This document shows, piece after piece, positions 1,415-27,446 of a stretch of DNA of 64,000 bases. Below the pieces are notes generated by a model. That model worked only from the letters and a program-made list of their open reading frames with translations, was not told where the DNA came from and did no database searches. The position numbers and the translations under genes were made by a program. Position 1 is the stretch's first letter. Every line of letters begins with the position of its first letter. Source of the stretch: Escherichia coli (GTDB lineage Bacteria > Pseudomonadota > Gammaproteobacteria > Enterobacterales > Enterobacteriaceae); assembly GCF_003334405.1 (NCBI RefSeq), contig NZ_QOWM01000004.1. One strand, 5' to 3'.

Positions 1415-2383
1415 TTATGCGAGAACCAAATCCCCCTGCGGATGGCAGGAGCAGGCCAGTACGTAACCTTCAGCGATTTCGGCGTCGGTCAGCGTCATTG
1501 TGCTGCTCACCGTATATTCACCGGAAACCACTTTTGTCTTACAGCAGCCGCAAACACCCGCACGGCAGGCAGCGACAACCGGAACGTTATTGCTTTCCAG
1601 CGCCTCCAGTAGCGTGGTGCCAACCGGGGCGTAAAATTCTCGTGCCGGTTGCAGTTTGGTGAATTTCAGACCGCTGGTCGCCGCTTCTGCTACTGGGGTG
1701 AAGAATTTCTCTTTAAAGAAACGCGTCACGCCGAGCGCTTTCACTTCCTGCTCTACCCAATCCATATACGGAGCCGGGCCGCAGGTCATCACGGTACGTG
1801 AAGCTAAGTCAGGTACACCTGCCAGCAGTTCGCGAGTGAGACGACCAGCGATAAAGCCTTCGGTAACGTTATTTTCTGCCACCAGCGTTACCGGATAGTT
1901 ACGCCACTCATCGGCGAAAATAACATCCTGCGGCGTACGCACGTTGTAGATCACCCGCACATCGGCCTGTGGACGGTTCTTCGCAAGCCAGCGACGCATC
2001 GACATAATCGGCGTGACGCCGCAGCCTGCCGCCAGCAACAGGAATTTATCTTCTGCTTTATCGTCGCAGGTAAATTCCCCCATCGCGTCCGAAAGCCAGA
2101 GATAATCACCGCGTTTTACATCGCGCGTCAGCCACTGGGTGCCGACACCGTCATCAATCCGCCGCACGGTCAGGGTGATATATTCACTCACGCCTGGCGT
2201 GGAGGAAATGGTGTAAGCACGCAGCGTTTCCGCTGAGTTTCGCACGCTGACCAGTGCATATTGCCCGGCGCGATATGGGTAGTAATCGTGGCAAATCAGG
2301 GAAATCGTCCACACATCCGGCGTTTCTTGCGTAATGTGATGAACCTGCATCCGCCACGGGCATTGATTCGTTGGCATCGTCAT
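1415..2383 (-). CDS. hcr: NADH oxidoreductase partner of hybrid-cluster protein (FAD/NAD-binding, C-terminal 2Fe-2S ferredoxin Cys cluster)
   Basis: ORF 1415..2389; trimmed to the conserved MTMPTNQCPW start; C-terminal CRAGVCGCCK motif; 11-bp gap after the hcp stop, consistent with an hcp-hcr operon. Confidence 0.9.
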   Translation of the reverse strand: MTMPTNQCPWRMQVHHITQETPDVWTISLICHDYYPYRAGQYALVSVRNSAETLRAYTISSTPGVSEYITLTVRRIDDGVGTQWLTRDVKRGDYLWLSDAMGEFTCDDKAEDKFLLLAAGCGVTPIMSMRRWLAKNRPQADVRVIYNVRTPQDVIFADEWRNYPVTLVAENNVTEGFIAGRLTRELLAGVPDLASRTVMTCGPAPYMDWVEQEVKALGVTRFFKEKFFTPVAEAATSGLKFTKLQPAREFYAPVGTTLLEALESNNVPVVAACRAGVCGCCKTKVVSGEYTVSSTMTLTDAEIAEGYVLACSCHPQGDLVLA

Positions 2384-2394
2384 CGACAAACTCC

Positions 2395-4047
2395 TTACGC
2401 GCTCAACAGTTGCTTCATGTCTTCTTCAACAGTGGTGATAGAACGCAGGCCGAATTTCTCGTTCAGCACCGCCAGCAGGTCTGGTGTCAGGAAACCAGGT
2501 GCAGTCGGGCCGGTGACGATATTTTTCACGCCCAGAGAAAGCAGCGTCAGCAGAATGACGATCGCTTTCTGTTCAAACCAGGAGAGCACCAGCGACAGCG
2601 GCAGATCGTTGACACCGCAGCCCAGTTTCTCTGCCAGAGTGACAGCCAGAATAATCGCTGAGTAAGCATCGTTACATTGACCTGCATCTACCAGACGCGG
2701 CAGACCTTCGATATCGCCAAACTCAAGTTTGTTAAAGCGATATTTACCACAGGCGAGGGTCAGGATCAGGCAGTCATCCGGCACGCTGGTGGCGAAATCG
2801 GTGAAGTAGTGGCGCTCGCCGCGTGCGCCGTCACAGCCACCAAGCAGGAAGATATGACGCAGTTTTTCACGGCTCACCAGATCAATCAGCGTATCAGCAG
2901 CGCCAAGCAGCGTCTGGCGACCAAAACCCACGGTGATAAGGTGCGGAATTTCGCTGTACGGGAAGCCTGCCATCTGTTGCGCCTGGGTGATAACCGCAGA
3001 GAAATCATCACCGTCCAGATGACGCACGCCAGGCCAGCCAACAATGCTGCGGGTCCAGATACGATCGTCATAAGCGCCTACGGTTGGGTCGATGATGCAG
3101 TTCGAGGTCATCACGATGGGGCCAGGGAAACGAGCGAACTCCACTTGCTGATTCTGCCAGCCGCTGCCGTAGTTACCGACCAGATGCTTGAATTTACGCA
3201 GCTCCGGGTAGCCATGCGCAGGCAGCATTTCGCCGTGGGTGTAGACATTAACGCCCGTGCCTTCGGTCTGTTCCAGCAGGTTGTAGAGATCTTTGAGATC
3301 GTGACCGGAAATCAGAATGCATTTACCCGCCGTCGCTTTGACGTTGACCTGGGTTGGCGTCGGGTGACCGTATTTACCGGTTTCGCCTGCATCCAGAATG
3401 CTCATCACTTTGAAGTTCATCTGGCCGATTTCCATTGAACACTCAAGAAGCGCGTTCATATCGGCAGGCCAGGTCCCCAGCCACGCCATGATTTTATGGT
3501 ACTGGGCATAAATATCGTTGTCGTATTGACCGAGAACATGCGCGTGTTCCATATAGGCCGCCGCACCTTTCAGGCCATACAGGCACAGCAGACGCAGGCC
3601 GAGAATGTTTTCGCCAATCGCCGCTTTATCTTTGTTAGGGGTAAATTCTGCTGCCTGACGTTGCAGCTCGCCGAGATCGTCGCTCACCAGTTGCAGGTCA
3701 GCCATCGGGTTATCGACGCGCGCGTTGGCATCTACAGCCAGGCATTGCGCTTTCAGCGCCTCGCGCAGGGCAATCGCTTCACGAGCGTAGCCGACAATAC
3801 GCGGAGAATCGAAGTTAACGTTGGTCAGGGTTGAGAAAAAGGCACGTGGCGCGAAGCTGTCAACATCGTGGTTGATGATGCCGTATTCACGCGCTTTTAC
3901 CGCCCAGGCAGAAAGCCCTTGCAGCGCCGCGATGAGTAAATCCTGAAGGTCAGAAGTTTCCGCCGTTTTACCACACATCCCCTGCGCGTATGAGCAGCCG
4001 TTTCCTGCCGGAGTACGGATAGTTTGTTCACATTGCACACAAAACAT
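2395..4047 (-). CDS. hcp: Hybrid-cluster protein / hydroxylamine reductase
   Basis: ORF 2395..4053; N-terminus MFCVQCEQT with the Cys-rich cluster motif; ATG at 4045-4047 preceded by an AGGTG Shine-Dalgarno on the minus strand. Confidence 0.9.
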
Positions 4048-23456: not shown

Positions 23457-26400
23457 TTGAGCCAGGAATACACTGAAGACAAAGAAGTCACATTGACAAA
23501 GTTAAGTAGCGGCCGCCGCCTTCTGGAGGCGTTGCTGATCCTTATTGTCCTGTTTGCCGTCTGGTTGATGGCTGCCTTACTAAGCTTTAACCCTTCGGAC
23601 CCCAGCTGGTCGCAAACGGCCTGGCATGAACCTATCCATAATTTAGGTGGGATGCCCGGTGCGTGGTTGGCAGATACGCTGTTCTTTATTTTTGGCGTGA
23701 TGGCTTACACCATTCCCGTCATTATTGTCGGCGGTTGTTGGTTTGCCTGGCGTCATCAGTCCAGCGACGAATACATTGATTATTTTGCCGTTTCGCTACG
23801 CATCATTGGCGTTTTGGCGCTCATCCTTACCTCCTGTGGTCTGGCGGCAATCAACGCTGACGATATCTGGTATTTTGCCTCCGGTGGCGTCATTGGCAGC
23901 TTACTAAGCACTACGCTACAACCACTGCTACACAGTAGCGGGGGAACTATTGCGCTGCTCTGCGTTTGGGCAGCGGGCCTGACGTTGTTCACCGGTTGGT
24001 CATGGGTGACCATTGCTGAAAAACTCGGCGGCTGGATTTTAAACATTCTCACCTTCGCCAGTAATCGTACCCGTCGCGATGATACCTGGGTCGATGAAGA
24101 TGAGTATGAAGACGACGAAGAGTATGAAGATGAAAATCACGGCAAACAGCATGAATCACGCCGTGCCCGTATTCTTCGCGGCGCGCTAGCGCGTCGTAAA
24201 CGGTTGGCGGAAAAATTCATTAATCCGATGGGGCGGCAAACAGACGCTGCGTTGTTCTCCGGTAAGCGGATGGATGATGACGAAGAGATTACCTACACTG
24301 CACGCGGTGTGGCTGCCGACCCGGACGACGTCCTATTTTCGGGCAATCGTGCAACGCAGCCAGAATATGACGAATACGATCCATTATTAAACGGTGCGCC
24401 AATTACCGAACCTGTCGCTGTAGCAGCTGCTGCTACCACGGCGACACAAAGCTGGGCTGCGCCGGTTGAACCTGTGACTCAGACGCCGCCTGTTGCCTCT
24501 GTTGATGTTCCACCTGCGCAACCTACAGTAGCCTGGCAGCCTGTACCGGGTCCACAAACGGGAGAGCCGGTTATTGCTCCTGCACCGGAAGGTTACCCAC
24601 AGCAGTCACAATATGCGCAGCCTGCAGTGCAATATAATGAGCCGCTGCAACAACCAGTACAGCCGCAGCAGCCGTATTATGCACCTGCAGCTGAACAACC
24701 TGCGCAACAGCCGTATTATGCCCCTGCGCCAGAACAACCGGTGGCAGGTAACGCCTGGCAAGCCGAAGAGCAGCAATCCACTTTTGCTCCACAGTCTACA
24801 TACCAGACTGAGCAAACTTATCAGCAGCCAGCCGCTCAGGAGCCGTTGTACCAACAGCCGCAACCCGTTGAACAGCAGCCTGTTGTGGAGCCTGAACCCG
24901 TTGTAGAAGAGACAAAACCCGCGCGTCCGCCGCTTTACTACTTTGAAGAAGTTGAAGAGAAGCGAGCCCGTGAACGTGAACAACTTGCGGCCTGGTATCA
25001 ACCGATTCCAGAACCGGTTAAAGAACCAGAACCGATCAAATCTTCGCTGAAAGCACCTTCTGTTGCAGCAGTACCTCCAGTAGAAGCCGCTGCCGCTGTT
25101 TCCCCGCTGGCATCTGGCGTGAAAAAAGCGACACTGGCGACGGGGGCTGCCGCAACCGTTGCCGCGCCAGTCTTCAGTCTGGCAAATAGCGGTGGACCGC
25201 GTCCTCAGGTCAAAGAGGGGATTGGTCCGCAGTTGCCACGACCGAAACGTATCCGCGTGCCAACTCGTCGTGAACTGGCGTCTTACGGTATTAAGCTGCC
25301 CTCACAGCGTGCGGCGGAAGAAAAAGCCCGTGAAGCCCAGCGCAATCAGTACGATTCTGGCGATCAGTACAACGATGATGAAATCGATGCGATGCAGCAG
25401 GATGAACTGGCACGTCAGTTCGCCCAGACACAGCAGCAACGCTATGGCGAACAGTATCAACATGATGTGCCCGTAAACGCAGAAGATGCAGATGCTGCGG
25501 CAGAGGCTGAACTGGCTCGTCAGTTTGCGCAAACTCAACAACAACGTTATTCCGGCGAACAACCGGCTGGGGCGAATCCGTTCTCGCTGGATGATTTTGA
25601 ATTTTCGCCAATGAAAGCGTTGCTGGATGATGGTCCACACGAACCGTTGTTTACGCCAATTGTTGAACCTGTACAGCAGCCGCAACAACCGGTTGCACCG
25701 CAGCAGCAATATCAGCAGCCGCAACAACCAGTTCCGCCGCAGCCGCAGTATCAGCAGCCACAACAGCCGGTTGCGCCGCAGCCACAATATCAGCAGCCGC
25801 AACAACCGGTTGCGCCACAGCAGCAATATCAGCAGCCGCAACAACCGGTTGCGCCGCAGCAGCAGTATCAGCAGCCACAACAGCCAGTTGCGCCACAACC
25901 GCAGGATACCCTGCTTCATCCGCTGTTGATGCGTAATGGCGACAGCCGTCCGTTGCATAAACCGACGACGCCGCTGCCTTCTCTGGATTTGCTGACACCG
26001 CCGCCGAGCGAAGTGGAGCCGGTAGATACCTTTGCGCTTGAACAAATGGCTCGCCTGGTGGAAGCGCGTCTGGCTGATTTCCGTATTAAAGCCGATGTCG
26101 TCAATTACTCTCCGGGGCCGGTTATCACTCGCTTTGAATTGAACCTGGCACCGGGCGTAAAAGCGGCGCGCATTTCTAACTTGTCACGGGACCTTGCCCG
26201 TTCACTTTCGACGGTGGCGGTGCGTGTCGTTGAAGTTATTCCTGGCAAACCCTATGTAGGTCTGGAGTTACCGAATAAAAAACGACAAACCGTTTATCTG
26301 CGCGAAGTTTTGGATAACGCCAAATTCCGCGATAATCCGTCGCCATTAACCGTGGTGCTGGGTAAAGATATCGCCGGTGAGCCGGTGGTTGCCGATCTGG

Positions 26401-27446
26401 CGAAAATGCCGCACTTGTTGGTTGCGGGGACTACCGGTTCCGGTAAATCTGTCGGTGTGAACGCGATGATCCTGAGCATGCTTTATAAAGCACAGCCAGA
26501 AGATGTGCGTTTCATCATGATCGACCCGAAAATGCTGGAGCTTTCGGTTTATGAAGGCATTCCGCATCTGTTAACGGAAGTCGTTACTGATATGAAAGAT
26601 GCCGCCAACGCGCTGCGCTGGTGTGTTAACGAGATGGAGCGTCGGTATAAACTGATGTCTGCGCTGGGTGTGCGTAATCTGGCGGGTTATAACGAAAAAA
26701 TTGCTGAAGCCGATCGCATGATGCGTCCGATTCCAGACCCGTACTGGAAGCCGGGTGACAGTATGGATGCCCAGCATCCGGTGCTGAAAAAAGAACCATA
26801 CATTGTGGTGTTGGTTGACGAATTTGCCGACCTGATGATGACGGTAGGTAAAAAAGTGGAAGAGCTGATAGCACGTCTGGCGCAAAAAGCCCGTGCCGCG
26901 GGTATCCACCTCGTACTGGCAACTCAGCGTCCATCGGTTGATGTTATTACTGGTCTGATTAAAGCGAATATTCCGACCCGTATCGCCTTTACCGTATCCA
27001 GTAAGATTGACTCACGTACCATTCTTGATCAGGCTGGCGCGGAATCACTGCTGGGTATGGGGGATATGCTCTACTCTGGGCCGAACTCCACGTTGCCGGT
27101 ACGTGTCCATGGTGCTTTTGTTCGCGATCAGGAAGTTCATGCCGTGGTGCAGGACTGGAAAGCGCGTGGTCGCCCACAGTATGTTGATGGCATCACCTCC
27201 GACAGCGAAAGCGAAGGTGGTGCGGGTGGTTTCGATGGCGCTGAAGAACTGGATCCGTTGTTCGATCAGGCGGTGCAGTTTGTCACTGAAAAACGCAAAG
27301 CGTCAATTTCTGGCGTACAGCGTCAGTTCCGCATTGGTTATAACCGTGCAGCGCGTATTATCGAACAGATGGAAGCGCAGGGGATTGTCAGCGAACAGGG
27401 GCACAACGGTAATCGTGAAGTGCTGGCCCCACCGCCGTTTGACTAA
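23457..27446 (+). CDS. ftsK: DNA translocase FtsK (N-terminal membrane domain, Pro/Gln-rich linker, C-terminal RecA-like motor and gamma domain)
   Basis: 1329-aa ORF; the only in-frame start giving the recognised MSQEY... N-terminus is TTG at 23457-23459; Walker A GTTGSGKS; long PQ-rich linker. Confidence 0.9.
25674..25907 (+). repeat. About six tandem copies of a 39-bp (13-aa [13 protein letters not shown]) in-frame repeat inside the ftsK linker
   Basis: Translation reads [13 protein letters not shown] / [13 protein letters not shown] / [13 protein letters not shown] / ... in direct succession; the DNA units are near-identical. Confidence 0.85.

Follow-up and report, generated by a model that had tools for sequence, protein, structure and literature searches.

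The 39-bp repeat array in the linker of Escherichia coli ftsK is the strain-typing locus CVN001/ms07

The window analysed here, a 64,000-nucleotide stretch of Escherichia coli DNA (contig NZ_QOWM01000004.1 of assembly GCF_003334405.1), carries the gene of the essential division protein FtsK, and within the linker-coding part of that gene lies an array of six in-frame 39-bp units, 13 amino acids each, at positions 25674..25907 on the + strand. This array is already known as a standard strain-typing marker, under the names CVN001 and ms07, in schemes of MLVA, the analysis of variable-number tandem repeats at multiple loci. CVN001 is reportedly the generic E. coli MLVA locus of Lindstedt et al. 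2007, with its GECM-7 and GECM-10 schemes, while ms07 and a sibling locus, ms06, are said to belong to the Shigella/E. coli panel of Gorge et al. 2008. The array sits in the ftsK reading frame, its copy number is polymorphic in E. coli, its alleles differ by whole codons, and its peptide unit is conserved in three genera. We read it as a coding minisatellite that would gain and lose units by replication slippage or unequal recombination and would be tolerated within broad bounds, and we put the probability of this reading at about 0.88; the mechanism and the near-neutrality within bounds are the parts of it that we infer.

The array and its identity with published typing loci

The linker of FtsK joins the membrane-anchored N-terminal domain of the protein to its C-terminal DNA-pumping motor. 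The host gene (DNA translocase FtsK, 1329 amino acids, TTG start as listed, K-12 allele) occupies 23457..27446 on the + strand in the list of open reading frames (ORFs), and its product is a full-length match to the NCBIfam equivalog NF007615, with 3049 bits against a model cutoff of 1566 and residues 1-1329 of the protein aligned to positions 1-1355 of the profile. Tandem Repeats Finder (TRF) assigns a period of 39 to positions 25674..25894, with 5.7 copies, 88% matches, 0 indels and a score of 344. Dissected in the ftsK frame, the array is exactly 6 x 39 bp, comprising five units of the form QQPQQPV(A/P)PQ(Q/P)QY and a last unit that ends in D, and its end directly abuts a 12-residue segment followed by the conserved C-terminal part of FtsK. 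Both the coordinates and the unit given by the original prediction, which had described about six near-identical 39-bp units in a proline- and glutamine-rich (PQ-rich) linker of ftsK, are therefore exact.

Gln and Pro, read from the sequence, make up ~77% of each unit. The periodicity is not due to this composition, because the identity of the array at a lag of 39 is 0.872, far above the 0.501 ± 0.032 (maximum 0.641) obtained when the codons of this stretch were shuffled 10,000 times. Among the six units, 11 of 39 columns are variable, and 8 of these 11 are third codon positions. Judged from its sequence, the array is a coding minisatellite within the linker, the disorder of which is taken from the literature and from composition.

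Two published primer pairs bracket the array, and each of the four primers matches exactly and at a single place within the window. The CVN001 primers (PMC8143711 Table 1) are found at 25561..25579 on the + strand (forward, AACCGGCTGGGGCGAATCC) and at 25986..26005 on the - strand (reverse, GGCGGCGGTGTCAGCAAATC), and the ms07 primers (PMC8215070 Table 1) at 25414..25433 on the + strand (forward, GTCAGTTCGCCCAGACACAG) and at 25981..26000 on the - strand (reverse, CGGTGTCAGCAAATCCAGAG). These sequences, together with those of the ms06 primers, were drawn from later papers that cite the original schemes. The CVN001 amplicon predicted from the window is 445 bp, which the published sizing formula, (size-250)/39 (PMC8143711 Table 1), converts to (445-250)/39 = 5.0, or allele 5. 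The ms07 amplicon is 587 bp and falls on the published ladder of 392-821 bp, which rises in 39-bp steps and comprises alleles 1-12 by gel sizing (PMC8215070 Table 2). Because the published primers match exactly and yield the expected amplicons, the array is the named MLVA locus, with which it also shares the 39-bp unit and a polymorphic copy number. What the original prediction treated as a point to check is thus a routine typing locus already.

The CVN001 locus is identical to the array in the window, and its scheme counts one below the six physical units, such that K-12 is allele 5 and the published alleles 4-8 are 5-9 physical units in our count. Likewise, ms07 is this main array and ms06 an upstream array around the peptide QQPYYAPA; both have 39-bp units, and neither differs from its locus in the window. 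In Salmonella enterica, the 39-bp variable-number tandem repeat (VNTR) in ftsK is SENTR2, also named STTR7 (PMC2430564; PMC8627665). It shares with the E. coli array the gene, the position immediately before the conserved C-terminal part, the period and the peptide unit, and is the orthologue in another genus; it differs in its Val codon, GTA in Salmonella versus GTT in E. coli, and in having more copies in some serovars (Enteritidis, for example, has 9.3; PMC2430564). In-frame indels between Salmonella strains, of 84 bp (PMC6137255) and 195 bp (PMC8627665), have been reported in this repeat.

The surroundings of the gene are those of ftsK elsewhere. ORFs for lolA and then rarA follow downstream in the window, and the order lrp-ftsK-lolA-rarA is annotated in ten RefSeq genomes, while the RefSeq label 'ftsK: DNA translocase FtsK' stands beneath every E. 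coli match. In the stretches tested, the gene is 100% identical to MG1655 and to other K-12 records. Published accounts portray the FtsK linker as a tether that is unstructured, PQ-rich and of low complexity, whose length differs from one species to another and which FtsK needs to act normally (PMC5357621; PMC3870252; PMC5391129).

Copy number and allele structure in Escherichia coli

A direct BLAST search with the array and its flanks found matches in every one of the 5426 complete E. coli genomes. The alignment was unbroken in 2354 of them and broke in the other 3072, typically at the array's final base, so that no copy numbers were obtainable in this way. We then used flank-only queries (200+200 and 350+350 nt), for which the length of the array follows by subtracting the query length from the span covered in the record. 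From each flank-only search, 60 genomes spread evenly over the ranking were sampled, and combined the searches yielded 118 usable complete genomes of the 5426.

In this sample the array ranges from 117 to 351 bp, or from 3 to 9 units, with a Simpson diversity of 0.70. The two commonest lengths are 273 bp (7 units, 50 genomes) and 234 bp (6 units, 40 genomes), followed by 312 bp (8 units, 10 genomes), 249 bp (6 genomes), 351 bp (9 units) and 195 bp (5 units; 4 genomes each), and by single genomes with 117 bp (3 units), 180 bp, 219 bp and 225 bp. Every one of the 118 lengths is divisible by 3, and 109 of them are divisible by 39. The remaining off-register alleles (±15 bp or -9 bp, 9/118 genomes) are ones to which CVN001 sizing by gel or capillary is blind. 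Once the one-unit offset in counting is allowed for, our distribution agrees with the CVN001 frequencies published for Swedish isolates with extended-spectrum beta-lactamases (allele 4, 1%; 5, 40%; 6, 40%; 7, 13%; 8, 5%; PMC5217547 Table 3), and it is also in line with the gel-sized ms07 alleles 1-12 (PMC8215070 Table 2). A linker of strain-variable length, as the original prediction had proposed together with a comparison of copy number across E. coli genomes, is therefore what we find, and the alleles are not identical.

On the scale of clones, the array changes slowly. The sampled K-12 derivatives, laboratory-evolved ones included, all have 6 units, and the sampled O157:H7 genomes all have 7; CVN001 profiles of sequence type 131 are nearly all allele 6, with rare variants 2 and 5 (PMC3407997). 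These rare variants are the best available evidence for ongoing change. Differing copy numbers also occur on identical 400-bp flanks. The expectation that the array is prone to change in copy number is thus borne out across strains and needs refinement within lineages, since K-12 and O157:H7 are monomorphic. With phase-variable contingency loci the array has in common a change in length through misalignment of repeat strands. Contingency loci, however, switch genes on and off, whereas the unit of the ftsK array, at 39 bp, is a multiple of three and expression is never switched. We rejected this class for the array, which lies inside a coding sequence, has in-frame alleles in 118 of 118 genomes, and is uniform in the sampled K-12 (6 units) and O157:H7 (7 units) genomes rather than changing at a high rate within a clone.

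Repeats of this kind can be mis-assembled, and the array or its variability might in principle reflect collapsed or expanded repeats. We give this explanation almost no credence. The locus is present in every one of the complete genomes, all sampled alleles are in frame, the K-12 records agree among themselves, as do those of O157:H7, and MLVA studies based on the polymerase chain reaction independently give the same allele ladder (PMC5217547; PMC8215070). One record speaks for it: CRE10 (NZ_CP034404.1; locus L067, 1118..5367) is the sole genome of the 5426 in which the left flank aligns abnormally, and the annotation makes its ftsK a pseudogene of 4250 nt with a frameshift; beside the array, part of the sequence is locally duplicated. 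The CRE10 gene could be a true truncation that loses the motor domain, or an assembly error. Separately, the ftsK linker turned up in eleven 'plasmid' records of PLSDB (H241-H251), 73 kb to 4.9 Mb in size and all non-mobilizable, and 8 'plasmid' places also stand among the E. coli genome matches. By their sizes and lack of mobilizability, these records look like mislabelled chromosomes or chromosome fragments, and we rejected a plasmid-borne ftsK.

Ten full ftsK alleles, which all translate without stops, were retrieved and dissected. Their first unit and their terminal, D-ending unit are constant, while the interior units vary in number, type and order. Among the off-register alleles, those of CFT073 and GABEEC10 contain one or two additional five-residue QQPQY pieces (+15 bp each), and those of KFu019 and ETEC1738 a fused unit that is short of five residues (15 bp). 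FtsK spans 1316-1381 amino acids in these fully resolved alleles, and 1303-1407 amino acids are implied in the further sample. In the strain with three units, FtsK has 1316 residues, compared with 1290 expected. Its length does not follow the main array alone, because the QQPYYAPA array also varies, as seen in a protein alignment of seven alleles.

This second array is a 39-bp VNTR of two 13-residue units at 24666..24743 (+ strand), identified by TRF (24664..24739, period 39 x 1.9), by primers and by alignment as the MLVA locus ms06. QQPYYAPA begins at residues 404 and 417 (nt 24666 and 24705), and the ms06 primers match exactly at 24556 and 24837, giving 301 bp, the lowest rung of a published ladder of 301-379 bp with alleles 2-4 (PMC8215070). 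A flank-only search of 59 genomes returned 2 units in 20, 3 units in 21, 4 units in 17 and a 144-bp array in 1, or roughly equal thirds of the three copy numbers. The gene therefore holds two separate typing loci ~1 kb apart. The original prediction had listed QQPYYAPA and a 14-residue motif together as other duplicated segments; both are present, but they are not of one kind. The 14-residue motif is a non-tandem pair, located by sequence comparison at 25404..25445 (residue 650) and 25509..25550 (residue 685) on the + strand. Its copies encode identical peptides, and the 8 nucleotides that distinguish them all fall on third codon positions. The pair is found in 18 of 19 Escherichia, Salmonella and Citrobacter loci, with a spacing of 105 nt in Escherichia and 102 nt in Salmonella and Citrobacter. 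The pair is an old duplication under purifying selection and does not vary in length, and the conserved motif, ELARQFAxxxQxRY, may serve for binding, within a linker said in the literature to be devoid of conserved features. Elsewhere in ftsK, a 9-bp x 3.2 repeat (GAGTATGAA) at 24102..24130 encodes an acidic 14-residue stretch of FtsK, and 18-bp repeats akin to GAGTATGAA occur at the same place of ftsK in other Escherichia and Citrobacter loci.

With two length-variable arrays in one linker, a constant linker length would require that one compensates for the other. We measured the summed length of both VNTRs with a three-piece flank query and found no such compensation in the sampled genomes: the variance of the sum is 3641, above the summed variances of the two arrays (1221 + 980; 2202). 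This estimate is rough, coming from stratified samples of different genomes, and its implied correlation is positive with a bootstrap interval of 0.02-1.5. In the ten dissected alleles the direct correlation is r = -0.30, a value that is uninformative for the reason that these alleles were chosen for extremeness. The result argues against tight control of total linker length.

These data bear on an alternative in which copy number is adaptively tuned, with the array acting as a ruler for how far the FtsK motor reaches from the membrane at the septum, and stabilising or lineage-specific selection keeping each lineage at a favoured length. The distribution is indeed narrow, since 90 of 118 genomes have 6-7 units and no genome has fewer than 3, and three genera have kept the array, at 3.9-8.2 copies; moreover, linker deletions cause filamentation and full FtsK activity requires the linker (PMC5357621). 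Clonal structure together with a low rate of mutation would, however, also give a narrow distribution. The total linker is not constant, given the lack of negative covariance between the two VNTRs and the ~104 residues that the implied lengths of FtsK span, and copy number differs even between arrays on identical flanks. An allele swap in Salmonella was likewise without effect, in one assay (PMC6137255). We consider such tuning unlikely, and favour unit gain and loss that is tolerated within broad bounds.

The repeat peptide across genera and the overlapping reading frames

To place the array outside E. coli, one genome per bacterial species was scanned for DNA encoding QQPQQPVxPQ, which returned 57 stretches. 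Matches spaced by 39 bp inside ftsK were found only in Escherichia, Salmonella and Citrobacter, namely in E. coli-like genomes, E. whittamii, Escherichia sp. MOD1-EC7003, Salmonella enterica subsp. arizonae and several Citrobacter species. For every one of them, TRF reports an array of period 39 with 3.9-8.2 copies that ends where the FtsK match (residue 817 onward) starts. The scan demands the exact peptide, and a species without a match, such as the representative of S. enterica subsp. enterica, does not thereby lack the array, which the literature places there. Single matches in C. braakii, Erwinia, Pseudomonas, an Enterobacteriaceae genome and many metagenome-assembled genomes, for which the stretches examined gave no FtsK match, were set aside as presumably unrelated PQ-coding stretches. 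In E. whittamii, ~10 kb from ftsK and unrelated to the array, locus L044 (11361..13796) contains repeats of a 60-bp period with a constant part, TTTCTAAGCTGCCTGTACGGCAGTGAAC, and unique spacers, resembling a CRISPR array.

The three genera share the peptide unit and differ in its codons, the Val codon being GTT in E. coli, GTC in MOD1-EC7003 and GTA in both Salmonella and Citrobacter. Some arrays bear a signature along their whole length: in Escherichia sp. MOD1-EC7003, 6 of the 7 units contain QPP, and identity within the array reaches 0.96-0.97 in three species. Such array-wide signatures, as read from the units, point to homogenisation by unequal exchange. Counted over 68 distinct units, minor alleles number 21, 44 and 187 at first, second and third codon positions (74% at third positions), in a census whose pattern fixes some residues, missed some units from outside E. 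coli and thus slightly overstates conservation there.

The same conservation admits a reading in which the 13-residue unit is a functional 'sticker-and-spacer' module, with Tyr residues spaced every 13 positions in a Pro/Gln background that would enter multivalent weak interactions at the septum, either among themselves or with divisome partners, and a copy number that would set their valency. Tyr closes each non-terminal unit in all arrays examined, and the upstream ms06 unit carries YY too. Variation is concentrated at synonymous sites, and the peptide is identical over Escherichia, Salmonella and Citrobacter despite the codon differences (GTT versus GTA/GTC). Parts of the linker are also reported, in PMC5357621, which cites Dubarry 2010, to contact FtsQ, FtsL, FtsI and FtsZ. 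Homogenisation by unequal exchange can, however, equally keep units alike, and the pattern that collected the units fixed several of their residues. The interactions of this particular segment are putative, and the FtsK proteins of Pseudomonas and Vibrio work with much shorter linkers (PMC5357621). We hold a module of this type to be improbable, and retain the tolerated minisatellite as the preferred reading.

The third-position bias also bears on the ORFs that overlap the array. The ORF list and stop-free frames give a 247-residue antisense ORF through the array (25302..26045, - strand) and a 115-residue antisense ORF (25651..25998, - strand), and the ORF list an alternative sense frame of 100 residues across it (25627..25929, + strand). 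The two long minus-strand frames might be taken for real overlapping genes, as they exist and would survive every in-frame change of copy number. Yet open frames are expected from the codons of the repeat: the antisense ORFs are open because a Gln/Pro codon repeat (CAG/CAA/CCG) has stop-free reverse complements, and the array is free of stops in 5 of 6 frames. The unit substitutions fall on third positions of ftsK, which the codon-aligned antisense frame reads as first positions, a pattern that fits coding by ftsK only, and RefSeq annotates ftsK alone across the array. Real genes in these frames are a vanishingly small prospect, and we regard all three ORFs as by-products. The array accounts for 234 of 744 nt of the 247-residue ORF (31%), 234 of 348 nt of the 115-residue ORF (67%) and 234 of 303 nt of the 100-residue ORF. 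The earlier claim that the repeats generate the spurious antisense ORFs consequently stands for the share of the array, to which the flanking linker adds its own contribution.

Unit gain and loss, and what the linker tolerates

In the explanation that we propose, 39-bp units would be gained or lost through misaligned pairing, by either replication slippage or unequal homologous recombination, and occasional misalignment between shorter sub-repeats of the CAGCAGCC type within a unit would produce the off-register alleles. As 39 bp amount to 13 codons, the gain or loss of a unit would keep the frame and alter only the length of a disordered tether. A cell that tolerates a wide range of tether lengths would then allow the species to carry, side by side, alleles of 3-9 units, or of 1-12 units as the literature sizes them on gels. 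The constant end units, the shuffled interior units and the off-register pieces of the dissected alleles fit misalignment between units or sub-repeats. In Salmonella, exchanging the 84-bp indel of the ftsK repeat between strains had no phenotype in egg white, the one assay reported (PMC6137255).

A higher-order period of 117 bp, or three units, outscores the 39-bp period in the K-12 array (94% versus 88%) and in that of C. sedlakii (95% versus 91%), where TRF places the array with the 117-bp period at 2369..2586 of locus L034. This hints that certain expansions may copy three units together.

Several points weigh against tolerated slippage or recombination as a full account. The mechanism is read from the end products in alleles rather than from observed mutation events, and slippage and recombination are not separable on this basis. 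The genomes were sampled in strata of BLAST rank from a clinically biased database, and are neither random nor phylogenetically independent. With 6 or 7 units in 76% of the sampled genomes and fewer than 3 in 0 of 118, the array is not in free drift. The codon-position counts, even with the fixed residues of the census in mind, point to purifying selection on the peptide, which would make the array neutral at best within bounds, and the persistence of the unit in Escherichia, Salmonella and Citrobacter is likewise consistent with a peptide, and perhaps a length, under selection.

For practical purposes, the array and its upstream sibling are two fingerprinting markers for isolates of E. coli, Shigella and Salmonella. 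Annotation and assembly of ftsK should expect length differences in steps of 13 residues, and short-read assemblies that are unreliable at the array. The current understanding of FtsK is unchanged by these findings. An essential division protein tolerates a variation of ~100 residues in its tether, and yet the repeat peptide is conserved over three genera. The combination is a modest hint that the sequence of the linker does more than span a distance. If the unit were indeed a functional module, its copy number would set a valency, beyond length alone.

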